Assembly (NCBI GenBank): GCA_028867135.1
Contig: JAGWGW010000006.1
Coordinates: forward strand, 1-60,577
Direction of reading: 5' to 3'
Length of the DNA stretch: 60,577 bases
Source: Candidatus Micrarchaeota archaeon
GTDB taxonomy: Archaea > Micrarchaeota > Micrarchaeia > Micrarchaeales > CABMGC01
The number at the start of each line of letters is the position of its first letter. Positions within the stretch are counted from its first letter, which is position 1. Below are positions 1,489 to 35,387 of the stretch, piece after piece. The notes under the pieces are model-generated. The model worked only from the letters and a program-made list of their open reading frames with translations. It was not told the origin of the DNA and did not search any database. Both the position numbers and the translations under genes were made by a program.

Positions 1489-2391
1489 ATGATAAAACTT
1501 CAGTCTGCGATGGAGTACCTGATGACTTACGGATGGGCGATACTCGCGATCGCGATTGTGATGGTCTCCCTTTATTCTCTTGGGATATTCAGCCTCGGAA
1601 ACCTGAAGCCAACTGCAACTCCCGGCTCGTGCCAGGTCATACGGACAGCAGCTCAGGTGAGTCTTGCAGGGCAATGCAATAACATGATTCCGAAATACGT
1701 TGGGCAGTTCAACGGACAAAACGCGTATGTTGATCTCGGAAATAGCGCGTCGGTAAGCCCCGAAGCCGGAGCAAACGGAAAAATGACCTTATGCATCTGG
1801 TACTTTATTACCTCCTCGGCAAGTTACAACGGACCTCTACTGAAAGGTGAGAGTTCTCCTTCAAGCGGAAACGGCTGGGAATATGCGATAGATCCCCAAG
1901 GAGCGTCACATGATGCTGTTGTCTGGGTTCCAGCGGGTAGCGGTATAATGAGCGTAAACTCTGGGAAAGCGACTACACTACAAACTTGGTATTTTGTCTG
2001 CTTTACCTATGATTATGCAGCAAATCAAGGTGCATATTACTACAACGGTACTCAATATTCAACAACATTAAGTCAAGGAAATGGCCCTGCTGCACAAAGA
2101 ACTGGACATCTTGTAATAGGAGCTGGCGAAGGCCCAGGCGGAGGTACTGGATATTCGAATATATATGCTGCAGATGTCCAGATTTACAATACCTCCCTTG
2201 ACAATACTACGATAAAGAGGCTATATCAGGAAGGTATAGGCGGGGCTCCGGTAGACCTGCAGCATCTCGTTGGTTGGTGGCCTCTCAACGGGAACGCAAA
2301 TGACTATTCCGGGAACAACAACCAAGGCACGTCAACAAGTGTAGTCTGGAACGCGAACTGGCAGAGCGGGTATACTGCGCCTACATCGTGA
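1489..2391 (+). CDS. class III signal peptide (archaeal prepilin-like) protein with LamG/ConA-like lectin core, paralog 1
   Basis: N-terminus MIKLQSAMEYLMTYGWAILAIAIVMVSLYSLGIF (short basic segment, QSA, then a hydrophobic helix). The core carries LamG_3-like blocks (YVDLGN..., WYFVCFTYD, LVIGAG, ADVQIYNTSL). The C-terminus is LVGWWPLNGNANDYSGNNNQGT...WNANWQSGY. ATG at 1489 chosen because the upstream part of ORF 1231..2391 overlaps an opposite-strand gene. Confidence 0.6.
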   Translation: MIKLQSAMEYLMTYGWAILAIAIVMVSLYSLGIFSLGNLKPTATPGSCQVIRTAAQVSLAGQCNNMIPKYVGQFNGQNAYVDLGNSASVSPEAGANGKMTLCIWYFITSSASYNGPLLKGESSPSSGNGWEYAIDPQGASHDAVVWVPAGSGIMSVNSGKATTLQTWYFVCFTYDYAANQGAYYYNGTQYSTTLSQGNGPAAQRTGHLVIGAGEGPGGGTGYSNIYAADVQIYNTSLDNTTIKRLYQEGIGGAPVDLQHLVGWWPLNGNANDYSGNNNQGTSTSVVWNANWQSGYTAPTS

Positions 2392-2930
2392 TGATTATGA
2401 AAGGATTTGTCTCCATAGTCATATCCGGAGAGCCGAAATCAGGAAAGTCGACGCTTGCAGGGATGCTTGCAAAGGCATACGGATGGCAGAGACTATCGCT
2501 GGGCGACATGTGGCGCGAGAAATGGAGGAAGCTATACCCTAATGAAGAGGTTCCTTTCGATGTATTCTGGAAAGGCACAACTATAGATGAGAACAGAAGG
2601 ATGAATGTCGAGGCAAAGAAAATATTCGAGAAGGGAAAGATGGTCGGAGACTCAAGGTTCGTATCCTACCTTAATCCCAGTAAATGCTTTCTCATATTCA
2701 TGACTGCCAGCCTTGAAACGAGGGCGAAAAGATCGGCGAACGGCGAATACAAGGGAAAGAGCATCGCTGGAATAAAGAGGCTGCTCAAGAAAAGGGAGAT
2801 GGACGAAGTGCAGATGGGCATGAAGCTGTTCAAGAATGATTACAGGGATCCGGAGCACTACCATCTCATCCTCAACTCAGGCATACTGACTCCGGAGCAG
2901 GAGTTCAACATTGTACGGAGCATCGTATAG
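2388..2930 (+). CDS. cmk: cytidylate kinase, archaeal type
   Basis: P-loop GEPKSGKST. The overall pattern matches archaeal CMP kinases of about 180 aa. Confidence 0.6.
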   Translation: MMIMKGFVSIVISGEPKSGKSTLAGMLAKAYGWQRLSLGDMWREKWRKLYPNEEVPFDVFWKGTTIDENRRMNVEAKKIFEKGKMVGDSRFVSYLNPSKCFLIFMTASLETRAKRSANGEYKGKSIAGIKRLLKKREMDEVQMGMKLFKNDYRDPEHYHLILNSGILTPEQEFNIVRSIV

Positions 2931-4493
2931 CTAGAGCTGCTTCTGCCCCTTGCCCAGCTGATAGCTCTCCGCGAGCTTCCTGTTCAGCGAGTTTATCAGC
3001 ATCCTCATCTTCTCCTCCTTCTGGCCCGATACCCTGAGATACACTTCGTCCTTGGTGCCTTCCGCAACAAGTATGTATATGTCTCCGTCCCTGAACCTCC
3101 CTGTCCTTCCCTTCCTCTGTATGTTCCTTATCTCATTAGGTATCGCTTCGTAAAACACGACCAGGTCAACGCTCGGTATGTCGAGGCCCTCCTCGCCTAT
3201 GGAGCTCGCCACCAGTATGTCAAATTTCCTGTTCCTGAAATCCTCTATCACCTGCTTCTGCTGCAGCTGCGTGACCCCCTCCTTCTTGCCGACGAACGGA
3301 ACGGAGCTGAAGCCGTTGTTGTTGAGGAATTCGACCAGCATCCTTATCGTAGAGCGGTACTGCGCGAACACTATGGCGCTCTTGCCCCTGTAATTCTTCA
3401 GCACGTCTATCAGCGCGAAAACCTTTCCATGCTCCTCGCTTCTCCTTACCGATTCCTCAGCCAGACTCTTCGCAGCCATGATGTTCCTGTTGTTTAGGAG
3501 GTACTCGACAGCGCGGCTCTTCTTCTCCCTGGCATGCAGCGAGTTCATGTAGCTGAGAAACGGGGATATGCCCTCAACAACAAGCAGGTCGTACGCATGC
3601 AGCAGGTTAAGCAGCTTCACATATCCGAATATGGCCCCGAACTTGTAGTTCCTGGCTTCTATCTTCTCTATCTCCCTTCCAAGCGCTATCAATCTTCCCT
3701 TCGGCATGTTCTGGAAGCTCTTGAAGTGCATCAGCCCCATGTGCCTGAGGCTGTCCATGCTGGCTTCGATCTCAGGCACGAGGAGCTTCGATATCTCCTT
3801 TATCCTATCGGTCTGCCTGACGTTGACAATGTGGACGTACTTCGGCATGATGTACTTTACCACATCGCCGTCTGTAGACACTCTCGCCTCGATGTGCCTT
3901 ATGTTGAGGGTTCCAACGAGCTCCTCTATCTTCTCCTTCTTGCTTCCGGGAGACGCCGTCAATCCGACAACAAGTATGTCCCTGACCGTGCATTCGTTCG
4001 CTATGTAAGTATATGCGTATTTCCCGACCGCCCTATGGCACTCGTCGAAGACAGCGACCCCGAACCCCTCAAGGCCGAGCATCGCGCTCTTCACGTCGTT
4101 CGCGACTGTCTGCGGAGTCGCCACTATGACCTTCGCGATGTTCGCCTCCCTAGCCTTCTTGCTTGTCGTTCCTGTGAGCAGCAGTATCTCCTCTTTCGGG
4201 ATCTTCAGCTGGTTCGCAATGGTATTGTAGTGCTGCTCGGAAAGCGGCTTAGTCGGGGCCATGAGCAGCGACCTCTTCCCATCCGCTATCGCCTTCGCTA
4301 TTGCAGCAACGGCTATGAAGGTCTTCCCAAGCCCTGTAGGCAGCACGACCAGCGTGTTGCCGTTCTGATGTATTGATCTTATTATGTTGTACTGGTATTC
4401 CCTGAATTCAGTGCCTTCGAGGTTCATCAGATTGGCGTAGTCACCAAGCAGCCGCCATCTCTCGTCAATAGCCATATAAACCAGTCTCAGCAC
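2931..4493 (-). CDS. hef: Hef/FANCM-like ATP-dependent helicase (helicase domain only, no nuclease)
   Basis: Motifs PTGLGKT, DECH, TASPG and RKGRTGR with superfamily-2 helicase layout. 520 aa, no ERCC4 domain. Confidence 0.65.
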   Translation of the reverse strand: MLRLVYMAIDERWRLLGDYANLMNLEGTEFREYQYNIIRSIHQNGNTLVVLPTGLGKTFIAVAAIAKAIADGKRSLLMAPTKPLSEQHYNTIANQLKIPKEEILLLTGTTSKKAREANIAKVIVATPQTVANDVKSAMLGLEGFGVAVFDECHRAVGKYAYTYIANECTVRDILVVGLTASPGSKKEKIEELVGTLNIRHIEARVSTDGDVVKYIMPKYVHIVNVRQTDRIKEISKLLVPEIEASMDSLRHMGLMHFKSFQNMPKGRLIALGREIEKIEARNYKFGAIFGYVKLLNLLHAYDLLVVEGISPFLSYMNSLHAREKKSRAVEYLLNNRNIMAAKSLAEESVRRSEEHGKVFALIDVLKNYRGKSAIVFAQYRSTIRMLVEFLNNNGFSSVPFVGKKEGVTQLQQKQVIEDFRNRKFDILVASSIGEEGLDIPSVDLVVFYEAIPNEIRNIQRKGRTGRFRDGDIYILVAEGTKDEVYLRVSGQKEEKMRMLINSLNRKLAESYQLGKGQKQL

Positions 4494-4538
4494 TACGATA
4501 TAGCCTTAAAAAGCTTTTAAGCAATACCTTGCTATCGT

Positions 4539-4610
4539 GCCGCAGTAGCTCAATGGGAGAGCGCCGCCCTGAAGAGGCGGATGTTGCTGGTTCAAATCCG
4601 GCCTGCGGCA
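4539..4610 (+). tRNA. tRNA-Phe (anticodon GAA)
   Basis: Cloverleaf folds by hand. Acceptor GCCGCAG/CTGCGGC, D-arm GCTC/GAGC, anticodon stem CCGCC/GGCGG with loop CTGAAGA, T-arm CTGGT-TTCAAAT-CCGGC. Discriminator A, no encoded CCA. Confidence 0.85.
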
Positions 4611-5761: not shown

Positions 5762-6172
5762 TTATAAGTAAGGTATCAGGTCAGATGTTTTCCATACCTT
5801 TATCATCTTCTGCTTCTGAAAATGACTGTCATCGCTCCATATGCCATCATTTGCAATTGCAAGTCCTAGCGCTATGAATGGCGTGTCATCTGCATCTATC
5901 TTATCCATAATCTTTTTTGCCTCATTAAATTTGTACTTAAGTATGGAATCATCAACTACATACAGATTATTCAATATTAATGACAGCAGGCTATCAAATG
6001 CGGTTTCTGTTAAGTTAGTCCTTCTCAATAGTTCCTCCTTGTGCTCCTCGAGCTCCATTTTTGTAAAACTTGGTGTTAGGAGTATGAACTTATCAGAATA
6101 GATTATTCTCCTGCTTACCGAATCCTTGATGAGTGCTGCAACTATCCTATTGGTATTAGCTACTAGTATCAT
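5762..6172 (-). CDS. vapC: PIN-domain ribonuclease toxin VapC
   Basis: Acidic PIN-like residues in a 136-aa protein. Overlaps the upstream small RHH/AbrB-like gene by 17 nt. Confidence 0.6.
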   Translation of the reverse strand: MILVANTNRIVAALIKDSVSRRIIYSDKFILLTPSFTKMELEEHKEELLRRTNLTETAFDSLLSLILNNLYVVDDSILKYKFNEAKKIMDKIDADDTPFIALGLAIANDGIWSDDSHFQKQKMIKVWKTSDLIPYL

Positions 6173-6398
6173 TCTCGAGCCTCTTACGTATTCCTGCCTT
6201 GACTTTGTGCCCTATGGTCTCAGCATCTTTTTCCGTAAGTCGGCTATTCTTGAGCATCTTATCCACAAGGTCCAGCTCCAGCAGCTTTTTTTCAAAAGCA
6301 AGCCTGGCTATATCGCTCCATTTCAATTCCGTATGTCTTTTCATTTTCTCATACAATTCATCTGAAACTGATAGTGTTATATTCGTCACAGCTTTCAC
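6156..6398 (-). CDS. vapB: VapB-type antitoxin (small DNA-binding protein)
   Basis: 80-aa ORF immediately upstream of and overlapping vapC. Gene order is the classical type II TA arrangement. Confidence 0.5.
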   Translation of the reverse strand: MKAVTNITLSVSDELYEKMKRHTELKWSDIARLAFEKKLLELDLVDKMLKNSRLTEKDAETIGHKVKAGIRKRLENDTSS

Positions 6399-8437: not shown

Positions 8438-9940
8438 TTGCATAATAGACACATGGACAAGGCACAAGTTTTCGGCATAATAGTTGTATTGGTAATATTG
8501 GCAGCGCTGGCCATCTTCTTGGCGAACCAGAATCCTGCGTCGCACAAGGGCCTTGGCCTGCTGTCAGTGCTGCTCACGGATCCTCCGCAGGTGCCGAACG
8601 GCACGCAGGCATTGGTTATAAGCTACTCATCGCTTGGGGTGCACACCGAAGGGGCTCAGGGCTCCGGATGGATCCAGTCTAACGCAAGCGGAACTGTCAA
8701 CCTCCTATCCCTTCTCAATCTCACCCAGACGATAGGCACCGTTTCAGTGCCGAACGGCACGCAGGTAAACCTGGTAAGATTCAGCGTCTCCTCCGCAAAG
8801 ATAACGATAAACAACATAACGTACAACGTCACGGTGCCCAGCGGAATGGTGCAGGCAAATGTCGAGGGCATGAACCATGTCAGCAGCAGCAGCGGCGTAC
8901 TGGTTTCGCTATCGCCCACAGTAGTTTCCATCCTGACATCAAACACCACAGTCTTCGTCCTTGTGCCATCGCTTCGCGCAGTAATAATCGCAAATGGCAC
9001 CAACCAGAGCACGGCACGTGTGGGCTTCAAGTCAAGGCTCCACGCAGAGGACAGAGACAGCCTGGAGCACACGGGCTCTAACATAACCGTAACCAACGCG
9101 TCATTGACGGTATCCGGGAACGTGACGGATCTTAGCGTCACAGTAAGGAACAACGGCAACCAGAGCGTGGCGCTGAAGCATGTGGCAATATTCGGGAACG
9201 TCTCAACCATGCTGAATTCAACGGCCATAGGGGACAATGCAGCAAGGGTAGAGGCCGAATTCGAGGACCAGCTAAGGAACAGCACCATATGTGCGAATAT
9301 CACGTCAAATTCAACGGTAAACGCATCTGCGTCTGCTAACAAGTCCGCAAACCTCAGTGTAGGCGCAAGGCCGATGTTCGATCTTCAAGGCAGCGGCCAA
9401 GGCAATGACGGTGCGAACGCATCAGCAAACCTGACAAGCAACATGAGCGGACGTGAAAACAGCGGCAATCAGAGCAAGCAGCAGGAATCGGACCATGTCA
9501 ACTTAAGCGCAAGCGACCGCATGAATGTCAATAATTCGGACTTCGGCGACATGGGCGAGCACCTGCAATCCAACTTGGGGCTTAGGATCAACGGGAGCGT
9601 ATGCACCGCTGCAGGCTTCGCAGAGTTCCAGGACAGGCTCAGGGCAAGGCTAGCAAACGCCACATCCGACTTTGCCCATGCCCAAGCGGACTTCAGGCTG
9701 GTCTCATTCCTGGTCGCGCAGAACGGAACCCTCGAGCTTCCCTACAACTTCGAGGACTTCAACGACACAGGATATTCGCTGCAGCCAAGCAGCTCGTTCA
9801 CATTCACCTTCAGCAACGTTATAGTGACCAGCGACGGCGGCCTTGTAATAAAACCGCTGCCTGGCAGCGCATACAGGATCAGGGTGGGCGGCGAGGAGGG
9901 CGCCTCAGCATCCACGAATCTCACTGCTACAGCAGGCTGA
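8438..9940 (+). CDS. large N-glycosylated surface protein (S-layer-like)
   Basis: N-terminal TM/signal anchor. More than 40 N-x-S/T sequons in 500 aa, with internal repeats (VPNGTQ…). Confidence 0.55.
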   Translation: MHNRHMDKAQVFGIIVVLVILAALAIFLANQNPASHKGLGLLSVLLTDPPQVPNGTQALVISYSSLGVHTEGAQGSGWIQSNASGTVNLLSLLNLTQTIGTVSVPNGTQVNLVRFSVSSAKITINNITYNVTVPSGMVQANVEGMNHVSSSSGVLVSLSPTVVSILTSNTTVFVLVPSLRAVIIANGTNQSTARVGFKSRLHAEDRDSLEHTGSNITVTNASLTVSGNVTDLSVTVRNNGNQSVALKHVAIFGNVSTMLNSTAIGDNAARVEAEFEDQLRNSTICANITSNSTVNASASANKSANLSVGARPMFDLQGSGQGNDGANASANLTSNMSGRENSGNQSKQQESDHVNLSASDRMNVNNSDFGDMGEHLQSNLGLRINGSVCTAAGFAEFQDRLRARLANATSDFAHAQADFRLVSFLVAQNGTLELPYNFEDFNDTGYSLQPSSSFTFTFSNVIVTSDGGLVIKPLPGSAYRIRVGGEEGASASTNLTATAG

Positions 9941-9981: not shown

Positions 9982-10542
9982 CTACCTGTAGTGCACGGAC
10001 TCGTATCTTACATCGAGTTTTGCGGCTAACTGGGTCTTCTTCAGCAGCGAGAGCACGTCGCCAAACGCTCCTCCTGCGATGTAGAACTGCAGCTGATGCC
10101 CCGGCAGCGCAGCCCCCAGGTCGAGCAGCAGTACGGTATAGTTTACCGAAGGCCTGTTGGAGCCCGGCATGCCGCTTGCGTACGATATGCACCTGCTGAG
10201 CCTTACTGCTGTCACCTTATGGTAGGCATGCTTTATGCGTATGTCCATCTGCCCTGATGGCGACATCGCGCCAAGGCTTTTGCGGACAATGCCACATTGC
10301 GACACGTAATTCCTGAACATCTCCAGCCCCGCGCTGTCAAGGGGCTTCTCATCGAGCTGGGGCAGCAGCGCGCCCAGCACGAAGTTATCAGTAAGGATAA
10401 GCCTGTACGCTGTCGCGTCTGCGATTTTGCGGAACATCACATTGTTGGGGGTTGTTGCCGCAGGGCATATCTCGCCCACGACCTTCTCATCCCTGACGCT
10501 ATCGTAATAGTTTACCATGGATACGCTCTGCGCATTGGCCAT
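9982..10542 (-). CDS. hypothetical protein
   Basis: 186-aa ORF, divergent from thiE. No motif I can confidently assign. Confidence 0.35.
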   Translation of the reverse strand: MANAQSVSMVNYYDSVRDEKVVGEICPAATTPNNVMFRKIADATAYRLILTDNFVLGALLPQLDEKPLDSAGLEMFRNYVSQCGIVRKSLGAMSPSGQMDIRIKHAYHKVTAVRLSRCISYASGMPGSNRPSVNYTVLLLDLGAALPGHQLQFYIAGGAFGDVLSLLKKTQLAAKLDVRYESVHYR

Positions 10543-10720
10543 ACATCCATTTGCCTTTTCTCCTTTATAACGATGCCGCTTGATGTGGCCTGCGGTTCAG
10601 GCATGCCCGTTAGGCGCATTGAGACGCTGTACCTGCAGCGCTGCCGTATCGCTATCCCTTTTACCGAAACAAATCAGATGCTTCTAATATTCTCATTGCA
10701 GATTCCTCTTAGGTGGCATC

Positions 10721-11038
10721 ATGGTCCTGGTATGCCCCAAATGCGGGGCCGAGAACAGCGACGATACTGCAAAATGCAAGATATGCGGCAGCGCTATTGG
10801 AGATGCGGCCGTAGGCAAAAGGCCGACCCACTACAGGTCTGCCGTAGGATTCGTGCTTCTCCTGGCCGTAGTGGCCTTGGCGATACTTCTGTATCCTGTT
10901 ATAGCCTCAAAGCTGTCATCGCTTTACAAGAACATAGTTTCATCGACAACAACCGTTACCAGCATACCGACGACAACAGTCAACCAGTCGACTACCGTGC
11001 CGTGCATCATATGCATAGGCGACCACAGCGGCCATTGA
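10721..11038 (+). CDS. zinc-ribbon membrane protein
   Basis: CPKCG…CKICG zinc ribbon, then a TM helix and a Thr-rich tail. Preferred over the overlapping 10297..11052 ORF. Confidence 0.4.
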   Translation: MVLVCPKCGAENSDDTAKCKICGSAIGDAAVGKRPTHYRSAVGFVLLLAVVALAILLYPVIASKLSSLYKNIVSSTTTVTSIPTTTVNQSTTVPCIICIGDHSGH

Positions 11039-12986: not shown

Positions 12987-14684
12987 TCAGTACCTTACCT
13001 TGAGCTTCGTTATGCCGCCCCTGCTTCCGACATGGGCATACTCGCCGGTTCCATCGTCGTTTCTTTTTATTACCTTGAAGCCTTCAGGAAGCCTTCCATC
13101 CCTGCCCGCAGCCTTCAATGCAGGCCCGAGGAACTCGCGGTCCTTCTCCAAAAGGTTACCCTTCCCCATGGTCCTTTCCGCCTCTCCAAGAAGCAGGTTC
13201 TCGTGTACAGGGACGTACATCGAAGCAGGAAGATTTACAGGATTTCCGAGCACGATCACATTATTCCCTATCGTTGCGGAGTCTATGTGCGCCTCGGTCC
13301 AGAGCACCTTGCTGAACGCTCCGCTTCCGTATGACGATTCGTTGCCTTCTATGACTGCGCTGCCGTCCGCCCCCAGCATGTCATTTAGCATGCCTGCGCT
13401 CAGCTTCTTGGCGTATTCCTGGAGCCCGCTCGCCCTCATGACCACTTTCGCGCTTGCGTAGCCGTTGCCGTATTTTCCAGGAAGCACAAGCCCCCCATCT
13501 ATGTTGAGCTTCTTGCAGAACGCGTTGAACTCATCAGTAGCGTTCTCCCTGACTGCCTTGTACCAGTTCCAGTAGGCAGTCAGCTGCGGATTCTTCTCAA
13601 TATAATCTATGAAGTCTGCCTCCTCCAGCATCCTGGAGCCTTTCTTGTTGAATGCGGCAACAGTAGCATCGAACATGTCAGTGAACCTCGAATAGCCGAG
13701 GCGCGGCTCAGGGCCAACTCCAGGCCTGCCTTCTATCTCCTTAAGCAGGGCAGGATTGGTCTCCCTCAGCCAATGCGCGAACAATGGCGTAGCAGAGTAG
13801 ATCGCCTGCTTCGGGAACGGGACGTGGGTTACCACGGATTCGGGATTGGGCTTCCTGCCCGTAAGTTTCTCATAAGCCCTTTCGGCGTCCTCGTACGCCT
13901 TTGCGACCACGTACACGTACATCCTCTCGGAAAACTTGCCGTGTACTGTCGGGGTCTCGCTGCCGAACTTGTTGAAATCTGATGCTGGTATATGGAACGC
14001 GCCGGATCCTTTTCCGTACATGACCTCCACGAGCTTCGGATTCTTCGTTATCCATGCGAGTGTAGCCGCTGAACCCTGCGTCACCTCTGCGTTCGGCGCC
14101 TTGTTATGGTCGTAGATTGCGGTGTCCACGCTCAGGACCAGCGCGCTGTTCGGCATCCCTATTGCATGGTTCGCAAATATTGTCGATACGGCCTGCTCGA
14201 GTGCTATGCCCTCCCCTGCGCATGCGAAAGTTATCTGGATCGGTGTCGCCCTCTTGAGCATCTCAACTATCGTCCTGTTCCTTCCCTCGTCCTCCGCAAG
14301 CAGCTTCGAATAGACCATGAGAAGCGCAGGAGTGAGCTCCGGTCTGCTCCTATCCACGTTGCTTTCTGTGGCAAAGTAAATGTGCGTTATGGGCTCATCC
14401 ATTAGCTTAGCCCTCTCTCCGGGGTCATCCAGCGTTTTCTTCAGGAACTTGTAAAGAACGTCAGCGGTCAACGTCGCGTTCGTTTCTGAGAAGCTTGGGT
14501 ACCTGTTGCCCTCTATCATCAGCCCTTTCCTAAGCTTGCCCTCGCTCTGGAGCTGTTCGCCGGTGCTTACGTTTACCCCCTCGGCCAGCTCAGCTGCGGT
14601 AAACTGCACGCTGCCAGCCTTTAGCACAAGCGTCGTGATCCCTATCCTTGGGAAATTGTCCGGAGAATCTAGTTTGCCGTTCAT
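12987..14684 (-). CDS. hydroxymethylglutaryl-CoA synthase-like condensing enzyme (extended, 565 aa)
   Basis: Blocks align to archaeal HMG-CoA synthase: ATESNVD, active-site FACAGEG, ALVLSVDTAIYD…AEVTQGSAAT, FPK, SYGSGAF, and C-terminal GEYAHVG. Confidence 0.6.
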   Translation of the reverse strand: MNGKLDSPDNFPRIGITTLVLKAGSVQFTAAELAEGVNVSTGEQLQSEGKLRKGLMIEGNRYPSFSETNATLTADVLYKFLKKTLDDPGERAKLMDEPITHIYFATESNVDRSRPELTPALLMVYSKLLAEDEGRNRTIVEMLKRATPIQITFACAGEGIALEQAVSTIFANHAIGMPNSALVLSVDTAIYDHNKAPNAEVTQGSAATLAWITKNPKLVEVMYGKGSGAFHIPASDFNKFGSETPTVHGKFSERMYVYVVAKAYEDAERAYEKLTGRKPNPESVVTHVPFPKQAIYSATPLFAHWLRETNPALLKEIEGRPGVGPEPRLGYSRFTDMFDATVAAFNKKGSRMLEEADFIDYIEKNPQLTAYWNWYKAVRENATDEFNAFCKKLNIDGGLVLPGKYGNGYASAKVVMRASGLQEYAKKLSAGMLNDMLGADGSAVIEGNESSYGSGAFSKVLWTEAHIDSATIGNNVIVLGNPVNLPASMYVPVHENLLLGEAERTMGKGNLLEKDREFLGPALKAAGRDGRLPEGFKVIKRNDDGTGEYAHVGSRGGITKLKVRY

Positions 14685-15928: not shown

Positions 15929-16735
15929 ATGAACAACAAGCTGTTCTACGGCATAATCGCCCTGATAATCGTGGCCGCGCTCCTGGCGTTCTTCATCTTC
16001 GGGTTCAACGGCTCGAAGAAGCAGGACCTGACAGCTTATGACGACCAGCCGGTTTCGCCTGCAGTCCTTGCGAAGCTTAACGTGCCTGCAAGCGTCAGCC
16101 AGTCGGTCGGAATAGGCGTCGCAACCCCTCCAATGAGGGTGAACGGCACCCCGATGCGGATCAACGGCAAGGCCGTCGTAGTCTACGTAGGCGCGGAGTA
16201 CTGCCCATACTGTGCAGCGCAGAGATGGCCGATGGTGATAGCGCTCATGAGGTTCGGCAGCTTCTCCGGATTGAGGTACATGACATCCGACCCGCGTGAC
16301 GTATTCCCGAGCACCCCTACATTCACGTTCCACAACTCGACGTACACAAGCCAGTATGTCGTCTTCATGCCTGTGGAAACGACAAACAACACAGGCGCAA
16401 GGCTGGAAACCCCAAACCAGCTGCAGAATGCGACATTCAACGCCTACGACCTGCACAACCCGGCCATACCTTCTAGCAACAGGGGCAGCATACCGTTCAC
16501 GGATTTCGGCAACCGCACCATAATACTCGGATCCAGCTACCAGCCGACCGCGCTGAACAACCTCAACTGGTCGCAGATAGCAACGGAGATGAACGACCCT
16601 TCAACGCTGCAGGCCCAGTCGATCGTCGGCACGGCCGATCTCATGACCGCGCAGATATGCACGATAATAAACAATTCAGATACGACTGTTTGCAATCAGC
16701 AGTACGTGAAGCAGATACAGAAGAGCCTGGGTTGA
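15929..16735 (+). CDS. DUF929 family thioredoxin-like membrane-anchored protein
   Basis: N-terminal TM segment. [16 protein letters not shown] motif typical of DUF929. Confidence 0.6.
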
Positions 16736-16738
16736 TGC

Positions 16739-17128
16739 ATGGGGACTGCTGAAAAGGCGATAATAGCAATCTCGCTACTCGGCCTCGCTGTGACTGCGTA
16801 CCTAATACTATATCATTACTCGGCTGTTCAGCTTGTCTGCCCGAACGGCGGAGGAGCCATAAACTGCGAGAAGATACTCAACAGCAGCTACTCTGTCGTA
16901 CACGGGGTGCCGCTGCCTGTCATAGGCTTTGCCTTCTTCATCATCGAGCTCCTCTTCCTCAGGATAAAGGCCAAGGAACCGATAGTCTTCCTCAACGCGC
17001 TGGCTGTCGCTGTGGTAGTATTCCTGATATACATCGAGTACACGCTGGGAAGCATATGCCTGTGGTGCACCACGGTGCACATCCTCGTAATCGCGCTTTT
17101 CCTAGTTTCGCTCTACCGCGCGAAATAA
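16739..17128 (+). CDS. vitamin K epoxide reductase (VKOR)-like membrane protein
   Basis: Four TM helices with CxxC (CLWC) in the last helix and LVCPNGGGAINCE in the loop. Adjacent to DUF929. Confidence 0.6.
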   Translation: MGTAEKAIIAISLLGLAVTAYLILYHYSAVQLVCPNGGGAINCEKILNSSYSVVHGVPLPVIGFAFFIIELLFLRIKAKEPIVFLNALAVAVVVFLIYIEYTLGSICLWCTTVHILVIALFLVSLYRAK

Positions 17129-18535: not shown

Positions 18536-19537
18536 ATGAGCGGCATAATAGAGATAGACCACCTAGTCAAGAAATTCGAGGACTTCACAGCTGTCGATAA
18601 CATAAGCCTCGACATAAAGGAGGGCGAAATATTCGGAATACTGGGGCCGAACGGCGCCGGAAAGACCACCACCATAAACATGATACTCGGGCTGCTGAAA
18701 CCGACCGCTGGGAAGATACGTGTAAACGGCATGGACGTAAACAAACACCACGAGCAGACGAGGAGCATGCTCGGGTTCATGACGCAGGAAACCGTCGTCG
18801 AGGGGGACCTCACCGCAAGGGACAACCTCTGGCTGTTCGCAAAGCTGTACCATGTACCAGAGGGGGAGATAGAGGGAAGGATCAAGAATGCCCTGGAGGA
18901 ATCCGACCTGATGAACTTCTCGGACAAGAAGGCCGGCACGTTCTCAGGAGGGATGCAGAGGAGGCTTGCGCTCGTGAAGGCGATGATACAGAGGCCCAAG
19001 ATACTCGTGCTAGACGAGCCGACAACCGGCCTCGACGTGCAGAACAGGGTGCGAATGTGGGAGTCGCTAAGGGAGCTGAACAGGAAGAACATGACCTTGA
19101 TAATAACGACCCAGTACCTTGAAGAGGCCGACTTCCTGTGCAACAGGATAGCGATAATAGACCACGGCAAGATAAAGGCGATAGGCACGCCGTCAGAGCT
19201 CAAGAAGATGGTCGGCACAGGCAGGATACTTGAGATAGTTCTGAACAGCAAGGAGGATGCGGGAAATGTAGTGAAGGTGCTGAAGGGCTCCTTCAAGCTC
19301 AGTCCTGATGTAAAGGGCGAGAAGATACTCTGCCCCGTAGACAGCTCACGAAGCGATATACTTACAAAGATACTTGGCGAACTCGACAGGAAGAAACTGA
19401 GAGTGGCATCGGTAAACCTTCACATGCCCACCCTAGATGACGTTTTCATAAAGCTCACAGGTTCAGGGCTCAGGGACACTGCAGACAACGATTACCAGGG
19501 ATCCGGAATGAACCTTATGATGAGGGGAAGAAGATGA
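18536..19537 (+). CDS. ABC transporter ATP-binding protein (ABC-2 type)
   Basis: Walker A GPNGAGKTT, signature FSGGMQRRLAL, Walker B LVLDEPTTGLD. Confidence 0.85.
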   Translation: MSGIIEIDHLVKKFEDFTAVDNISLDIKEGEIFGILGPNGAGKTTTINMILGLLKPTAGKIRVNGMDVNKHHEQTRSMLGFMTQETVVEGDLTARDNLWLFAKLYHVPEGEIEGRIKNALEESDLMNFSDKKAGTFSGGMQRRLALVKAMIQRPKILVLDEPTTGLDVQNRVRMWESLRELNRKNMTLIITTQYLEEADFLCNRIAIIDHGKIKAIGTPSELKKMVGTGRILEIVLNSKEDAGNVVKVLKGSFKLSPDVKGEKILCPVDSSRSDILTKILGELDRKKLRVASVNLHMPTLDDVFIKLTGSGLRDTADNDYQGSGMNLMMRGRR

Positions 19538-20655
19538 GCCTGCTATCCGATTCAATAACGCTTTATACAAGGGAACTGCTCATCTTCAAGGCCAACCTCA
19601 GGACCAACATCATGAGGTCCGTGATGTTCCCCTTCGTCATCATACTCTTCTTCGGAAGCATAGGCGCGATAGCGCTGAATACGCCGATAGCCATCGTGAA
19701 CTATGCGAACAACCCGCAGTCCCTTTCGCTGATAAGCAGCCTGGGCTCAACAAACAACGTAAAGATCTATACCATAACAGACCAGAACACGGCGCTCAAG
19801 CTGCTGCAGGACGGGAAGGTCCAGGCTGTCGTAGTCATACTCCCAACGTTCCCGAGCATGACTCCGAACGTTCCAGGAGTGCAACTCTACTATTCCACGA
19901 TACAATCGTCATCAGTGACTTTTGCAGTCCAGTACATAACAAACACCGCGAACAGGTTCGGCGCGGTATCGCAGCAAGGCAATCTAACAGTCCAGAAGCA
20001 GAGCGGACAGGTCACTCCGATAATACTCTACGGGACCAAGGGCTCCTACAAGGACTTCCTCACCGCAGGGATACTGGGCATGATAGTCGTATTCACGTCG
20101 ATATTCAGCGGCGGGATAGCCTTCATATCCGACAGGCAGCTGGGCAACGTGAAGATGTTCCTGATAACGCCGATAAGCAAGAACGCGATAGTGCTGAGCA
20201 AGGTCTTTGCAGGCGCCACCTTCTCTCTCATATCAGCTTTCCTGGCGCTCGGCATAGGCGTGCTGCTCGGCGCGAAGGTGGCCATGCAGCCGATAGAGGC
20301 GATACCGCTGATCGCGGTCACCGTGGGCGTACTGGGCGCCGGCTTCAGCTCGCTGGCGATGATAATAGCGACAAAGGTGAAGAAGGTAGACGCGTACGCC
20401 ATATTCGGCCAGGCCATAGGGCTCCCGCTATGGTTCATAGCGGGAGGGATCACCCCTGTGCAGAGCCTGCCTACGTGGCTCCAGCCGCTCTCGACCTTCG
20501 ACCCGCTTACGTATGCGAACATCATAAACAGGGCAGTGGTCATGCAGGGCGTGATACCGCTCGGCCAGTTCCTCGAGTCCATCGGAGTGATAATAGCCTT
20601 CACGCTGGTGCTGACGCTTATCAGCTTCAGGATGTTCAAGTCCACGATAGAATAA
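19534..20655 (+). CDS. ABC-2 type transporter permease
   Basis: Six TM helices. 4-nt overlap with the ATPase gene. Confidence 0.7.
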   Translation: MSLLSDSITLYTRELLIFKANLRTNIMRSVMFPFVIILFFGSIGAIALNTPIAIVNYANNPQSLSLISSLGSTNNVKIYTITDQNTALKLLQDGKVQAVVVILPTFPSMTPNVPGVQLYYSTIQSSSVTFAVQYITNTANRFGAVSQQGNLTVQKQSGQVTPIILYGTKGSYKDFLTAGILGMIVVFTSIFSGGIAFISDRQLGNVKMFLITPISKNAIVLSKVFAGATFSLISAFLALGIGVLLGAKVAMQPIEAIPLIAVTVGVLGAGFSSLAMIIATKVKKVDAYAIFGQAIGLPLWFIAGGITPVQSLPTWLQPLSTFDPLTYANIINRAVVMQGVIPLGQFLESIGVIIAFTLVLTLISFRMFKSTIE

Positions 20656-20682: not shown

Positions 20683-22335
20683 ATGAGACAAATATTGCAA
20701 ACTGCTGTTGCCGCTGCGCTGCTGTCAACGCTATTGGGCATCGCATTGGCCCAATCGTCATCCGTATCGGGCGCATTGTCGGTAGCCAACCTGAACGTGG
20801 CCCCGGAACCGATCCTGCCAGGCCAGAACGTGACCATATACTTCCAGCTTTACAACTCGTACACCTCTTCGCTGAGCAATGTCAACCTCTGGCTTCAGGG
20901 CTCCTACCCGCTGCTGAACTACTCGCCTGCAAACACCACGATAATAAGCTCTATCGCGACAGGCCTGAACACCGGTGGCCTCAACTACAAGGGGGTCGGC
21001 AACTACTATACGTATACCCTGCACATACCCAGGAACATAAAGGGCGGCTCATACACGCTGCACCTGATGGCCAGCTATACCGCTGTTCCGTCTGCCTCAT
21101 CCGGAACCTCTTCCGCGGTCACAGGCACATCCGACGTGCCCATAACGATATTCATATCGGGAACGCCCAACATCGCGCTAACGGCAAGCCCGAGTCCGCA
21201 GATAGTGCCCGGCCAGCAGTCAGATGTGAAGATAAGCGCGACTAACGCAGGAACGGACAACGCTACGAACGTAAGCATAAAGGTGCTGAATTCGAGGAAC
21301 TTCAGTGTCGCAGGTTCAAGCATGCTGAACCTCGGGACCATAGCCCAGGAGGCGTCAGGCAGCGGAACTGTCACGCTGCAGGCAAACACCAGCCTTGCAA
21401 GCGGAAATAGCTCCATACCGATGCTGCTTACGTACTCGACATTGGCAGGTGCAAACTACTCCAAGGTTGTCATGGTGCCTGTAAGCGTGCTGATAAACAG
21501 GCCGAACATAGTCGCTAGCATAATCGACGCAACGCCCACTGTGCTCCGTTCGGGCGCAAACCAGACCCTGACAGTAGGCATACAGAACATAGGGACAGGG
21601 GTCGCAAAGAACCTGACAGTGAGCTTCATGAGCACATCCAATATAACTGTCGGCAATGCCGCATCCGGCATATTCATAGCTACGCTGCAGCCGAACCAGA
21701 CTGCAACATACGGCATATCGATAACCGCAAGCTCCAACGCAAACTATACGAGCTACAGCATACCCATACGCATGGGCTACCAGACCGCCAACTACCAGCA
21801 GTCGATAAGCAAGAACACATCCATCAACGTCACGTTGCAGAAGGCCGCGATATTCAACGTCACTGGCGTCAGCGGCTACCTGAATGTCGGCGGCACCTAC
21901 GTGCCCCTTACGTTCACGGTCAGGAACGTGGGCAACGAGCCCGCCAACCATGTCACTGTCAGCCTGCAGACCATATATCCGATATCGAGCGCGAACTCGA
22001 ACGCGTACGTCGAGAGCCTTGCGCCAGGTCAGTCCAGGCAGGTGACCTTCTACGTCAACGTGGACTCGCAGGGCAATCCAGGCCCTTATCCTGTGACATT
22101 GTACGAGCAGTGGACGCAGCCTAACGGGGCGACAAACCAGCAGTACACGGGCTCCAACAACTACTACGCAAACGTTGGAGGAACGGGCAACGGCCCGATG
22201 AGCAAGCTGCCGATATCCGACATAGTGCTGGGCATAATAATAGTGGTTGCTGCTGCGCTCCTGCTCAGGAGGTTCAGGCCTGAGATATTTGCAAGGAGCG
22301 GCAAGAATGGAAAGGCAGAAAAGCCTAAGAAGTGA
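20683..22335 (+). CDS. surface protein with CARDB/DUF11-like repeats, signal peptide and C-terminal TM anchor
   Basis: Signal peptide (…ALAQSSS). Repetitive Ig-like segments rich in N-x-S/T. C-terminal LPISDIVLGIIIVVAAALLLRRFR anchor plus basic tail. Confidence 0.55.
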   Translation: MRQILQTAVAAALLSTLLGIALAQSSSVSGALSVANLNVAPEPILPGQNVTIYFQLYNSYTSSLSNVNLWLQGSYPLLNYSPANTTIISSIATGLNTGGLNYKGVGNYYTYTLHIPRNIKGGSYTLHLMASYTAVPSASSGTSSAVTGTSDVPITIFISGTPNIALTASPSPQIVPGQQSDVKISATNAGTDNATNVSIKVLNSRNFSVAGSSMLNLGTIAQEASGSGTVTLQANTSLASGNSSIPMLLTYSTLAGANYSKVVMVPVSVLINRPNIVASIIDATPTVLRSGANQTLTVGIQNIGTGVAKNLTVSFMSTSNITVGNAASGIFIATLQPNQTATYGISITASSNANYTSYSIPIRMGYQTANYQQSISKNTSINVTLQKAAIFNVTGVSGYLNVGGTYVPLTFTVRNVGNEPANHVTVSLQTIYPISSANSNAYVESLAPGQSRQVTFYVNVDSQGNPGPYPVTLYEQWTQPNGATNQQYTGSNNYYANVGGTGNGPMSKLPISDIVLGIIIVVAAALLLRRFRPEIFARSGKNGKAEKPKK

Positions 22336-29219: not shown

Positions 29220-29903
29220 TTGGCCTACAATAGGAATTACAATAGGAGAGAGCCTGAGAACAGGTTCAGCATAGACGACTGGAAGCCCAAGACAAGGATA
29301 GGCGAGATGGTCAAGGCCAAGGAGATAACAAGCCTTGAGCAGATATTCGAGAGCGGCAAGATAATCAAGGAAGTCGAGATAGTGGACGCGCTCATACCGA
29401 ACATAGAGGACAACGTCATAGAGATCGCATCGGTGCAGAGGATGACCAAGAACAACAGGAAACAGAAGTACAGGGCAACTGTCGTCATTGGGGACAGGAA
29501 CGGCCACGTAGGCATAGGGGTCGGGAAGGACGTCGAGGTAAAGCCGTCGATCGAGACTGCGATAAGGGATGCGAAGAAGCACATCATATCCGTCAACATA
29601 GGCTGCGGCTCGTGGGAGTGCAACTGCGGCACGAGGCACAGCATACCGCTTACGCTCAAGGCAAAGTGCGGCTCGTCCAACGTCATACTCAAGCCTGCAC
29701 CCAAAGGGGTGGGGATAGTCGCGTCCAAGACCATAAGCTCGGTCCTCGAACTCGCAGGAATAAAGGATGTCTGGACTTTCGCGAGAGGAAGGACGAGGGA
29801 CAAGTACAACGCCGCGCTGGCCACTTACAACGCGCTGAAGAGCCTGTCAGAGATAAAGAACGTGGACGCATTGGCTGTAAAAGAAAAGAGTAAACCTAAC
29901 TAA
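29220..29903 (+). CDS. rps5: 30S ribosomal protein S5 (uS5)
   Basis: Last gene of the cluster. TTG start. Confidence 0.85.
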   Translation: MAYNRNYNRREPENRFSIDDWKPKTRIGEMVKAKEITSLEQIFESGKIIKEVEIVDALIPNIEDNVIEIASVQRMTKNNRKQKYRATVVIGDRNGHVGIGVGKDVEVKPSIETAIRDAKKHIISVNIGCGSWECNCGTRHSIPLTLKAKCGSSNVILKPAPKGVGIVASKTISSVLELAGIKDVWTFARGRTRDKYNAALATYNALKSLSEIKNVDALAVKEKSKPN

Positions 29904-29949
29904 TTCTTATTACCAAGTAATTTAAGAATTCTCTTAATAATCAAACATT

Positions 29950-30849
29950 ATGCCTTCCTTGAGATTTGTGAGGACCAAAAGACTCCAATCCGCGATGGAG
30001 TACCTCATGACATATGGTTGGGCCATCCTCGCAATCGCAATCGTGATGGTCTCTCTCTATTCTTTGGGCATATTCAGTCTTGGAAATCTGCAACCTACTG
30101 CGACTCCCGGTTCCTGCCAGGTGATAAGGACAACTGCGCAGACGAGCCTTGCAGGTCAATGCAACAACCTTATTCCGAAGTATGTAGGCAGCTTCAACGG
30201 CGCAAACAGCTATATCTCAGTTCCCGATGCAAAGGTGCAGAGATCCATGACAACAGCCAGCTTTATCGGATGGATATATACCGCCACTACCGACGCGTCC
30301 TCTTACGACATGATGATAGCAAAGTACGCAACCAACCAGATAGGCTACAACTTCTATCTCAGCGGCGGATCACTACGCTGCTCGCTGTACAATGCCAGCG
30401 GCAATTCGGTGGATCACGCAATGGCTCCGAACCTGCATGATGGAAAGTGGCATTTTGTCGCATGCACTTATAACGGCAGCACGATGACGCTGTACGAAGA
30501 TGGGAAGTTCCTTGCAAGCTGGACCGGCACGTGGCAGCAGACTGGATCATGGACATTGAACCCTCTCGGATTGGGCTACAGGGGATACGGAGGCACGCTG
30601 TATTGCAATTGCTACCTTTCAAACCTGCAGATATACAACTCCTCGCTCGATTCGTCATCCATAAAGGCGCTATACCTGGAGGGAATAGGAGGCGTGCCGA
30701 TAGATCTCCAGGACCTTGTCGCATGGTATCCACTGAACGGGAATGCCAACGACTACTCGGGTTTGAACAGCAACGCGAATCTCAGCGGGATTGTAAACAC
30801 CGTCTGGAACGCGAACTGGCAGTCAGGGTACAAAGCGCCAACCTCCTGA
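29950..30849 (+). CDS. class III signal peptide (prepilin-like) LamG/ConA-like protein, paralog 2
   Basis: MPSLRFVRTKRLQSAMEYLMTYGWAILAIAIVMV… N-terminus. C-terminus LVAWYPLNGNANDYSGLNSNANLSG…WNANWQSGYKAPTS. Core is LamG-like. Confidence 0.6.
   Translation: MPSLRFVRTKRLQSAMEYLMTYGWAILAIAIVMVSLYSLGIFSLGNLQPTATPGSCQVIRTTAQTSLAGQCNNLIPKYVGSFNGANSYISVPDAKVQRSMTTASFIGWIYTATTDASSYDMMIAKYATNQIGYNFYLSGGSLRCSLYNASGNSVDHAMAPNLHDGKWHFVACTYNGSTMTLYEDGKFLASWTGTWQQTGSWTLNPLGLGYRGYGGTLYCNCYLSNLQIYNSSLDSSSIKALYLEGIGGVPIDLQDLVAWYPLNGNANDYSGLNSNANLSGIVNTVWNANWQSGYKAPTS
29986..30200 (+). repeat. 5' cassette of pilin-like gene (left arm of inverted repeat)
   Basis: About 174 nt (30027..30200) is 100% identical to the reverse complement of 35164..35337. 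A further 40 nt toward the ATG is near-identical. Confidence 0.8.
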
Positions 30850-30855
30850 ACTGCA

Positions 30856-31539
30856 TTATTTCACTATGCTTCCCTTGTAAGGCTTGCCCAGTATCGCCTT
30901 CTCTATCTCTGCCATGTCGTTGCTCACGAACCTTACTTCTATCCTCGACCTTCTCGCAAGCTTGCATCCGACCAGGTCGAACACGAAAGGAGCCTTTGCC
31001 TCCCTGCTGTCGTACTTGTATGCAAGATCGAGGAGCTGCTGGTAATTGAGCCTCTCCAGGCGCTTTGCCCCCTTCTCTGAAGGGTTCTTATCGTATATGT
31101 ATCCTACGCTGCTGACGTTTATCAGCGTCTTGCAGCCAGTGACCTCGCATGCGAGCACGGTAGACGCATCGGTGGTTATTCCCGGGATCAGCCCTCCCAT
31201 CAGCACGAGCTCGTTCTCGTTTATCGCAGCCTTGAGCTCCTCGAGGTTCGTGACCACGTTGGGGTAGGTCTTGAAATCCGAGAAAAGGTCCTTCATCATC
31301 AGCGCGTTTATCCTAGTGAACGCTATTCCCACCTCGTCGAGCAGCGCGTTGTTGTTTATGATGCTCCTTGTCGAGTTGATGTATAGCCTGTTGGCATACC
31401 CTCCGCCAACCACTATTATGAACTTGTACTTGTGTATGGCGCTCTTAAGCAATTTTGAGAACCTCTTGATGAAACCGACATTTATGCCCTCCTCTGTCGA
31501 TATTATGCTTCCTCCTAAAGATATGCAGATTATCTCCAT
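30856..31539 (-). CDS. pyrH: UMP kinase (uridylate kinase)
   Basis: Amino-acid-kinase fold motifs (IVVGGG, TTDASTVLAC) in 227 aa. Confidence 0.65.
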   Translation of the reverse strand: MEIICISLGGSIISTEEGINVGFIKRFSKLLKSAIHKYKFIIVVGGGYANRLYINSTRSIINNNALLDEVGIAFTRINALMMKDLFSDFKTYPNVVTNLEELKAAINENELVLMGGLIPGITTDASTVLACEVTGCKTLINVSSVGYIYDKNPSEKGAKRLERLNYQQLLDLAYKYDSREAKAPFVFDLVGCKLARRSRIEVRFVSNDMAEIEKAILGKPYKGSIVK

Positions 31540-32448: not shown

Positions 32449-32457
32449 CCAATCTAT

Positions 32458-32832: not shown

Positions 32833-32836
32833 GGCA

Positions 32837-33229: not shown

Positions 33230-33322
33230 AGTATCAACATAAAATGAGATCAGAAACGTCAATATACTTATCAATAACAAGGAATATAAAGATTACATAG
33301 GAGATGCTCGTATGGTGCATCG

Positions 33323-34424: not shown

Positions 34425-34493
34425 AACAAGCGATTTCCTTTACCAGTTAAAAATTATAAGCACTTCCATTGTGATCACGAAGCCAATGTTCTG

Positions 34494-35387
34494 TCACGAT
34501 GAAGGAAGCGAGTATCCGTTCTGCCAGTTCGCGTTCCAGATAACGTTTGTTGGAGTTCCCTGGTTGTTGTTACCAGAATAGTCGTTCGCATTGCCGTTCA
34601 GCGGCCACCATGCTACTAGATGGCCTACATCTATAGGTGCGCCTCCTATTCCCTCCTTGTAGAGTGCTTTTACTGTCGTATTGTCAAGCGATGCATTGTA
34701 GATTTGGACGTCTGCAATTGAACCATTGAAGTATAAGCCGGAATAGGCTCCAGCCCTCCCTATCATATAAGGCTGGGCTGTAAGGTTGCCTCCACTGACG
34801 GTCTGCGTCAAAGTATTTATGACAACGCCATTCTTGTAGAATACTACATTGCTTCCGTCGTATGTTATGGAGAGCATGACCCATTTTCCTGCTGGAAAGT
34901 TAGTAGAGTTGTACTTCTGCCCTGAGCAGGCCTTCTGTTCTGATCCACCGCTTGTTATAATCGTATACCAGCTGCCATCTGGACACATACCGACATTGAG
35001 CACACCAAGCACGTATCTGGCGCTGACATCAGAACCACCGCTATTTCCTCCACACATCACATTCTGACGGTAGGTATAGTCGCCGTTAGGCGCTATCCAT
35101 ACGGTCATCGTTGCCGCTGCTGTCGAACTGAAGTTTCCCACGCTGACATAGCTATGATGTGCTCCGTTGAAGCTGCCTACATACTTCGGAATAAGGTTGT
35201 TGCATTGACCTGCAAGGCTTGTCTGCGCAGTTGTCCTTATCACCTGGCAGGAACCGGGAGTCGCAGTAGGTTGCAGATTTCCAAGACTGAATATGCCCAA
35301 AGAATAGAGAGAGACCATCACGATTGCGATTGCGAGGACGGTCCATCCATAGGTCATGAGGTATTCCATTGCAGACTGCGATAGCAT
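34494..35387 (-). CDS. class III signal peptide (prepilin-like) LamG/ConA-like protein, paralog 3
   Basis: MLSQSAMEYLMTYGWTVLAIAIVMV… N-terminus. C-terminus LVAWWPLNGNANDYSGNNNQGTPTNVIWNANWQNGYSLPSS. Confidence 0.6.
   Translation of the reverse strand: MLSQSAMEYLMTYGWTVLAIAIVMVSLYSLGIFSLGNLQPTATPGSCQVIRTTAQTSLAGQCNNLIPKYVGSFNGAHHSYVSVGNFSSTAAATMTVWIAPNGDYTYRQNVMCGGNSGGSDVSARYVLGVLNVGMCPDGSWYTIITSGGSEQKACSGQKYNSTNFPAGKWVMLSITYDGSNVVFYKNGVVINTLTQTVSGGNLTAQPYMIGRAGAYSGLYFNGSIADVQIYNASLDNTTVKALYKEGIGGAPIDVGHLVAWWPLNGNANDYSGNNNQGTPTNVIWNANWQNGYSLPSS
35164..35369 (-). repeat. 5' cassette of pilin-like gene (right arm of inverted repeat)
   Basis: Reverse complement is identical to 30027..30200 over about 174 nt. 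Confidence 0.8.

Follow-up and report, generated by a model that had tools for sequence, protein, structure and literature searches.

A contig of a Candidatus Micrarchaeota metagenome-assembled genome (MAG; assembly GCA_028867135.1, contig JAGWGW010000006.1, locus tags KGI00_), analysed here over a stretch of 60,577 nucleotides (nt; the window), carries three paralogous genes, p1, p2 and p3, whose products join a pilin-like N-terminus to a LamG domain. We regard it as probable that they belong to an expanded, Micrarchaeota-specific family of surface proteins built from a pilin-type N-terminal module (N-module), a variable LamG core and a conserved tail, with a repertoire that changes by recombination. 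By analogy with adhesins described elsewhere, their function is most likely that of a lectin-like adhesin, either pilus-displayed or membrane-anchored.

The gene p1 (1489..2391, plus strand) encodes a protein of 300 amino acids (aa) that matches Laminin_G_3 (E=1.1e-14) and is identical to NCBI KGI00_02595. The second gene, p2 (29950..30849, plus strand; 299 aa), also matches Laminin_G_3 and lies directly after the gene for ribosomal protein S5; the NCBI model starts it at a GTG at 29968 and gives 293 aa. The third, p3 (34494..35387, 297 aa), lies on the minus strand between genes for an ERCC4-type nuclease and a RIO kinase. A first-pass annotation made from the sequence alone had described three genes with shared ends and a variable core at these positions, and the open reading frames (ORFs) and regional identities bear it out, the strand of p3 having gone unsaid. 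The p1 frame is open upstream to 1231, and the ATG at 1489 is backed by the family alignment and by the 300-aa NCBI model. Relatives have nothing equivalent to the Pro- and Lys-rich upstream extension (1231-1488), with which the ORF would reach 386 aa, and it is almost certainly non-coding. Exactly three copies were found in the window by tblastn with each protein, the remaining matches all having E>0.8. NCBI labels all three only as 'LamG domain-containing protein'.

Each gene can be divided by the family alignment into a leader, the N-module, the LamG core and the tail with its stop codon. In p1 these occupy 1489-1500 (leader MIKL), 1501-1716 (Q5-G76), 1717-2178 and 2179-2391, and in p2 29950-29985, 29986-30201 (Q13-G84), 30202-30627 and 30628-30849, all on the plus strand. 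In p3, on the minus strand, they occupy 35387-35379 (an atypical three-residue leader, MLS, with no K/R at -2), 35378-35163, 35162-34707 and 34706-34494. Over the 72 codons that follow the putative cleavage site the three proteins share 90-97% amino acid identity, over the core 23-25% and over the last 70 codons 67-79%. This profile of constant ends around a variable core is far beyond chance and recurs when 115 family members are aligned. Saturation of synonymous sites (pS 0.68-0.83) affects all comparisons among the three genes except that of the p2 and p3 N-modules (dS 0.18), and the ends have therefore been kept by purifying selection together with one local conversion tract. By these substitution patterns p1, p2 and p3 are old paralogs.

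A word-indexed protein search returned 2474 relatives at E<=1e-3, of which the best 120 are nearly all Micrarchaeota proteins of about 280-300 aa. At least 25 of those 120 come from a single related Micrarchaeota genome of about 0.85 Mb (REEA68, with contigs of 727 and 120 kb). When species-representative genomes were scanned, at least 540 matches were confirmed; the best 80 all lie in MAGs named as Micrarchaeota or Micrarchaeia except for two loci in one Marsarchaeota-labelled MAG, and the family is practically confined to Micrarchaeota. The 13,647 matches at E<=1e-30 in a global representative search are mostly giant multi-LamG proteins and are unusable as a measure of family size. The contig of a sister MAG (L001; L and P numbers denote compared loci and proteins) stops inside p3 (10241-10938), leaving 231 of 297 aa with about 66 N-terminal residues missing, roughly the N-module and repeat arm. 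This suggests that the conserved modules fragment short-read assemblies and that copy numbers of the family in MAGs are underestimates. The first-pass annotation had not recognised the family. An expansion of LamG-like proteins, some of them near type IV pili loci, had already been noted in 2017 in the cultured Micrarchaeon Mia14 (Golyshina et al. 2017; PMC5498576).

The N-module and the LamG fold

The N-terminal motif was evaluated in 106 relatives. The leader is short, mostly of 3-19 residues, and position -2 is K/R in 104 of the 106. Position -1 is most often Ser (52), followed by Leu (30) and Ala (8), with Leu in p1 and p2 and Ser in p3, so that the cleavage contexts of the three proteins read MIK-L|Q, ..KR-L|Q and ML-S|Q. 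The mature N-terminus is QSAMEYLMTYGWAILAIAIVMVSLYSLGIF, with Glu at +5 at least 90% conserved, and in relatives the mature end reads QSAMEYLMTYGWAIL..., that is, Gln at +1 and Glu at +5 followed by about 24 hydrophobic residues. The AlphaFold2 (AF2) model of p2 (pLDDT 83.7) places a helix at residues 15-38, a hairpin at 56-69, a sandwich at 79-229 and two tail strands at 256-260 and 285-287. The hairpin after the helix is closed by two invariant cysteines (Cys56/Cys71). Gln+1 and Glu+5 are the signature of the DUF361/Epd pilins that are cleaved by EppA in Methanococcus (PMC2910488, PMC3875500). Judged by these motifs, the N-terminus is predicted to be a class III (type IV pilin-like) signal of the Epd/DUF361 type. 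The earlier suggestion of an archaeal class III signal and hydrophobic helix is thus upheld by the short basic leader, the K/R at -2, Gln+1, Glu+5 and the modelled helix, and no match to a catalytic family was found that would have made these proteins hydrolases with an ordinary Sec signal.

The likeness to the Epd/DUF361 pilins of Methanococcus maripaludis extends to the short leader, Gln+1, Glu+5 and the hydrophobic helix. Those proteins differ, however, in having Gly at -1, where Ser, Leu or Ala is found here, and in their motif, QxSxExxxL as against QSAMEY with a Flp-like Tyr at +6. They are also small pilins, whereas the mature part here is a 26-kDa LamG domain. The same N-module is found on widespread Micrarchaeota proteins of 156-200 aa that are pilin-sized and have no Pfam match. 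Small ORFs beside a T2SSE ATPase at L041 also read K-L|Q..S.E, with Gln+1 and Glu+5, and because these stand by a pilus-type ATPase, Leu at -1 may be accepted in this lineage. The gene that occupies the p3 slot of REEA68, between the ERCC4 and RIO genes (L032 11174-12019), has the leader MLL where p3 has MLS, so that a slot-specific non-canonical leader is conserved despite differing cores.

The assignment of the middle part to LamG, also made by the first-pass annotation, is secure, since all three proteins score above the Pfam gathering threshold of Laminin_G_3 (55-69 bits against a cut-off of 27.6; E 1e-14 to 6e-19). The fold is further supported by PDB profile matches, by confident AF2 models and by Foldseek, which gave a probability of 1.00 to the LamG domain of PAPP-A, to neurotoxin HCN and to pentraxins. 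The tail of roughly 60 aa had been taken for a second constant end serving assembly. That the N-terminus and the tail are both shared holds true, but the tail is part of the LamG sandwich, supplying its last strands, and not a separate assembly end. This follows from the matches to tandem-LamG proteins and from a truncated model, both of which keep the tail with the core. When the helix and hairpin were deleted (p2 residues 73-299), the single-domain structure returned by AlphaFold was better than that of the whole protein (pLDDT 87.8, pTM 0.88), and both tail strands remained confident. A tail profile matched the three-LamG protein L013_12765 three times, once right after LamG 1 (E 5e-12) and twice directly before LamG 2 and LamG 3. 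The best matches in a library of 1.84 billion proteins are giant proteins of 4-28 LamG repeats; among the top 150 listed, about 60 span profile positions ~74-281, that is, core and tail in one piece. In P0206 each of two LamG units ends in its own tail, including at the very C-terminus, and in P0151 the first core has the trailing motif without a leading one. A search for the tail in other genomes, as had been proposed, therefore did find a homologous motif, although between the successive LamG cores of tandem-LamG relatives. Placing the tail before the core, as in a circular permutation, gave only weak matches in PDB and NCBIfam (Pappalysin at E~1; TafC at E 1e-4 to 6e-4, far below the cut-off), and a tail-only profile found nothing meaningful in PDB. 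Tandem-LamG relatives were not found by regular expression in the fetched loci, whereas a hidden Markov model search did find them.

Two proteins of about 1100 aa, P0151 and P0175, have a hydrophobic N-terminal helix, an N-domain of ~190 aa and five LamG units, and many such proteins are present in the global library. The start of P0151 can be read as the class III-like 'KI|QIALEY'; the N-terminus of P0175 is apparently truncated. Still larger proteins (P0125-P0134) reach 7,662 aa, and the giants carry up to 28 LamG repeats. The single-domain family resembles the opening unit of these ~1100-aa and giant LamG proteins.

Turnover of the variable cores

The N-modules of p2 and p3 form an inverted tract of 219 nt that is 95% complementary. 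Its left arm is the coding sequence of the p2 N-module (29986..30204, plus strand) and its right arm lies in p3 (35160..35378, minus strand), with 4955 nt between the arms. Over the inner ~178 nt the arms disagree at a single position, compared with about 20% of these sites for p1, and the tract is one of gene conversion. Across 67 family genes from about 30 genomes, N-module identity is 0.88 within genomes and 0.66 between them, whereas core identity is 0.33 in both cases. Exact nucleotide runs of at least 50 nt occur within genomes only (6 of 82 comparisons, against 0 of 312 between genomes). These figures show that the N-module evolves in concert within genomes.

The behaviour of the cores was followed by comparison of the window with REEA68. 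The two are colinear over S5, a family gene, pyrH, pyrB and further genes to the ERCC4 nuclease, an inverted family gene and the RIO kinase, and again over a second block of a family gene, a kinase and a helicase. Of eleven flanking proteins compared, ten share 84-92% identity; the remaining one, which lies at the far edge of a block, has 60%. The cores in matching slots, however, share only 28%, 34% and 25% identity. At the DNA level the flanks match at 80-93%, and the drop in identity, to 25-45%, coincides exactly with the cores. The p1 slot shows ~76% over the N-module and 31-46% from ~1725 to ~2150; where the tail begins the value recovers to 70-80%, and it stays there past the stop codon and into the genes downstream. 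Synteny with REEA68 ends upstream of p1. The ortholog of the p2 core, P0041, lies at another REEA68 locus, between genes for a GTPase and a glycosyltransferase, and the downstream neighbour differs again for a third p2-like core (P0022). Among 51 cross-genome pairs that share a neighbouring gene, median core identity was 31% as against 32% for random pairs. In these pairs core identity did not rise with that of the neighbour (rho -0.22), whereas N-module identity did (rho 0.43, P 0.002). The simplest reading of these comparisons is an exchange of cores, either alone or together with the tail, among family members by crossover or conversion in the conserved modules.

The core had been supposed to be under diversifying selection, and a comparison of dN/dS across the three window copies had been proposed. 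Synonymous saturation leaves nothing readable in that comparison and the ortholog pair of p2 and P0041 (84% identity overall, 86% in the core) was used instead. It gave a dN/dS of 0.064 for the N-module, 0.074 for the core and 0.062 for the tail, values that are rough because dS is high (1.25-1.8), which tells against the precision of the result, although pN of 0.09 against pS of 0.61 is unambiguous. The core is under purifying selection and not under diversifying point selection, its dN/dS being like that of the ends. Between paralogs the strands and loops of the core are about equally variable and indels are frequent. The exposed core does vary, as had been claimed, but by replacement of whole cassettes at conserved loci and not by accelerated point substitution.

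A more far-reaching proposal, which we put forward as a tentative possibility, is that recombination within the conserved 5' (pilin-type) and 3' (tail) modules, which would serve as portable arms of homology, moves cores between dispersed loci and probably between strains, giving repertoire-level variation of pilus-displayed host-binding adhesins. Inverted pairs such as p2 and p3 might in addition allow reversible inversions that re-pair cores with different leaders and promoters. The predicted p2/p3 inversion chimeras (three proteins) had no exact match among 15 billion sequences, a search of low power. No description of recombination-driven variation of an adhesin repertoire in archaea was found in the searchable literature.

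Assembly, known systems and competing explanations

By the mechanism we propose, the leader would be cut before Gln+1 by a prepilin peptidase of the FlaK/EppA type and the helix of about 24 residues would serve as the protein's membrane anchor. From there the ATPase and platform of a type IV pilus could lift the protein into a filament alongside the short pilins that bear the same N-module. The variable LamG core, its sandwich completed by the conserved tail, would be a lectin-like ligand-binding domain in contact with glycans or proteins on the host or on other surfaces. Each type of core would evolve slowly under purifying selection while the repertoire shifts by recombination inside the conserved modules, and lineages would in this way come to carry differing sets of binding domains on one invariant assembly module. 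Type IV pili systems of the Methanococci group have been described in Micrarchaeota, with one FlaK-like peptidase in Mia14, alongside the LamG-like expansion (PMC5498576).

A T2SSE ATPase gene lies within ~6 kb of a family gene in 6 of 78 loci from other Micrarchaeota. A T2SSE-family ATPase of ~438 aa, 53-59% identical across four genomes, adjoins class III-LamG genes in L012 (10868-12184), L025 (14468-15793) and L080 (5143-6459) and lies ~5 kb off in L006 (15908-17224). It stands beside class III-LamG or short pilin-like genes with no platform gene adjacent and, as read from sequence, is next to FtsY-like and prefoldin-like genes in two genomes; it might be a dedicated assembly ATPase. At L041 the order is T2SSE ATPase, two small membrane proteins and then small class III-type ORFs, of which Pfam confirms the ATPase only. 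A dedicated operon was rejected after neighbour enrichment, since no single gene family recurred beside the LamG genes at more than 8 of the 78 loci. The placing of a few family members beside machinery, with the rest dispersed, fits the presence of one or two ATPases per genome as against dozens of family genes.

Among known systems, the closest in lineage is the expansion of LamG-like jellyroll proteins in Mia14, which by its description shares the phylum, the domain, the many paralogs, the proximity of some to pili loci and a proposed role in host interaction (PMC5498576). A LamG-like jellyroll expansion in another DPANN lineage, arCOG07813 of Undinarchaeales (PMC7414124), is likewise comparable by its description. 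These one-paragraph accounts, in the text available, make no mention of a class III fusion, a conserved tail, a concerted N-module or syntenic core replacement. The best functional analogy is with PilC of Streptococcus sanguinis, which combines a class III signal with a lectin domain of the ConA/LamG superfamily and whose role as a tip adhesin was shown, its pilin moiety being unusually short (PMC9934059). PilC differs in being bacterial, single-copy and encoded in a pil operon, with a recognisable pilin moiety and an Ig-like module, whereas the present family is archaeal, with dozens of dispersed copies and a minimal pilin moiety. The likeness is functional only for the UpsA pilins of Sulfolobales, which recognise glycans of the partner surface in a species-specific manner (PMC7064770), and for Saccharibacteria, ultrasmall episymbionts that bind their host with type IV pili (PMC9894109); neither system has a LamG domain or a multigene cassette family. 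It is by analogy with the ConA-like module of PilC, the glycan recognition of Sulfolobus Ups pili and the pilus-driven episymbiosis of Saccharibacteria that an adhesin role towards the host is suggested here. The bindosome proteins of Sulfolobus resemble the family in using a class III signal to export or assemble a large ligand-binding domain. That domain is a solute-binding protein, however, whereas Pfam finds only Laminin_G_3 in p1, p2 and p3, and no ABC transporter gene adjoins any of the three, the sole ABC-2 permease gene of the window (19534-20655) being ~9 kb from the nearest. In the pilE/pilS system of Neisseria a constant N-terminal pilin part is joined to a variable exposed part that changes by recombination between dispersed copies. 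Here, by contrast, all copies are complete genes, the cores are under purifying selection and exchange is seen on evolutionary time scales only.

Several observations weigh against the view that these proteins are pilin-type subunits. The Pfam Class_IIIsignal/DUF361 model gave no match at E<=1 in p1, p2 or p3, position -1 is Leu or Ser and not the canonical Gly or Ala, and the p3 leader, as described above, has no basic residue at -2. A full pilin head domain is absent from the AF2 model of p2, which has the helix and hairpin only. Among 30 window proteins scanned against Pfam there was no pilus peptidase, ATPase or platform protein. The neighbours of p1, p2 and p3 are ribosomal, nucleotide-metabolism and repair genes, and most of the family is scattered through housekeeping genes, without a steady co-located partner. 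The putative platform and small pilin ORFs of L041 have no Pfam match, which makes a 'complete pilus locus' there tentative, and cleavage, filament incorporation, ligand binding and expression are all predictions. The main rival explanation, which we consider rather unlikely, is that the proteins are membrane-anchored surface lectins that stay out of filaments and use their class III signal only for export and anchoring (as in the bindosome or a short pseudopilus), acting as monomeric or oligomeric receptors. Class III signals are indeed found on many archaeal non-pilin proteins such as the sugar-binding proteins of Sulfolobus (PMC2910488), and the dispersal of the genes, mostly unlinked to pilus machinery, the size of the globular part (~230 aa) behind no more than a helix and hairpin, and the lack of a platform gene next to the ~438-aa ATPase would all suit anchored lectins. 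Against such lectins stand the sharing of the N-module with short pilin-sized proteins, its concerted evolution within genomes, as co-assembling subunits would need, the conservation of Glu+5 and the position of some members at ATPase loci where small class III ORFs are present too. That the proteins are ordinary Sec-secreted lectins or glycoside hydrolases with a signal peptide or signal anchor unrelated to pilins is hardly credible. The uninformative NCBI label would allow it, and LamG proteins of DPANN archaea have been described as Sec-exported proteins with signal peptides (PMC9563170), but the K/R-x|Q...E+5 pattern with its ~24-residue hydrophobic stretch lacks an n-h-c organisation and no catalytic family was matched.

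The case for cassette exchange is weakened in turn by its resting mainly on one close genome pair plus weaker pairs and by all the compared genomes being MAGs; differential loss of old tandem paralogs could mimic part of the pattern, and a mis-join at a repeat could explain why synteny is lost upstream of p1. The mismatch of slots and cores would then reflect such loss and/or chimeric assembly at conserved repeats, an explanation that we judge unlikely. Tandem arrays of 2-4 family genes exist at L013, L027 and L077, the sister-MAG contig L001 does break inside p3, and no p2/p3 chimeras in the inverted state are on record. On the other hand, the arrangement S5->p2->pyrH recurs in three independent assemblies and both of its flanks are conserved in REEA68, the 86% ortholog of the p2 core sits at another locus of that genome, the junction at the p1 slot falls exactly at the border of core and tail with the tail at flank-level identity, and conversion tracts can be seen directly. 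Classical antigenic or phase variation, with positive selection on the core or with silent cassettes copied into one expression site as in pilE/pilS, might be suggested by constant ends around a variable exposed middle and by gene-conversion tracts between copies. It is largely refuted and very improbable, given the core dN/dS of 0.074 between orthologs, the complete ORFs of p1, p2 and p3, each with its own start codon and leader and with no silent cassettes, and the fact that the visible conversion tract homogenises the constant part and does not diversify the variable part.

Neighbouring genes and significance

Some further features of the gene neighbourhoods may be recorded. In both the window (29220-31539) and REEA68 (L032 5953-8270) S5 is the last gene of the ribosomal-protein operon and a family gene comes after it; a convergent pyrH is next in both, replacing the usual L30/L15/SecY genes. 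Two family genes likewise follow ribosomal-protein genes in L013 (9043-10852; FK5.bin94). A Wzx-type flippase gene (Polysacc_synt) lies between class III-LamG genes, by the ATPase, in L025 (9971-14416; FK5.bin94), glycosyltransferase genes neighbour family genes in REEA68 (L081) and in L054, and the family has a conserved N-x-S sequon at 'IYN(T/S)S'. These features hint at a link of the family to surface glycan synthesis or to its own glycosylation. Elsewhere in the window a DUF929 protein (15929-16735) is directly followed by a VKOR-family protein (16739-17128), by appearance a pair that forms disulfides at the membrane and might act on exported proteins with a Cys pair such as the Cys56/Cys71 hairpin of the LamG family. 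The ABC-2 type permease is followed by a 550-aa secreted-looking protein with CARDB, NPCBM_assoc and Ig-like domains (20683-22335), a probable further surface or adhesion protein. The ORFs at 8438-9940 (500 aa), 12987-14684 (565 aa) and 37908-38768 (286 aa) have no Pfam match, the first and last having N-terminal hydrophobic segments, and are possible surface proteins as well. A PIN_2 domain protein (5762-6172, minus strand) overlaps an upstream ORF of 80 aa (6156-6398, minus strand) in a typical toxin-antitoxin layout.

The LamG expansion of Micrarchaeota, class III signals on non-pilins and the lectin-bearing modular pilins of bacteria were already known. As far as the searchable literature shows, what is new is the predicted Epd-type pilin module on an expanded family, the membership of the conserved tail in the LamG fold, and an evolutionary pattern in which the N-module is homogenised while cores, each under purifying selection, turn over like cassettes at conserved loci. 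DPANN archaea such as Micrarchaeota need physical contact with a host, and how they recognise it is largely unknown. Surveys of their genomes often annotate no pilins and treat LamG proteins as generic secreted proteins (PMC9563170). Family genes make up 4.4% of the bases of the window, and REEA68 carries about 25 genes of ~870 nt in ~850 kb. If the proteins are pilin-type subunits, some 3% of a ~1-Mb genome would be spent on this one family, whose members would then be prime candidates for a host-recognition repertoire. The cassette behaviour of the cores further suggests that host range could change, or phage be evaded, quickly and without any change to the assembly machinery.

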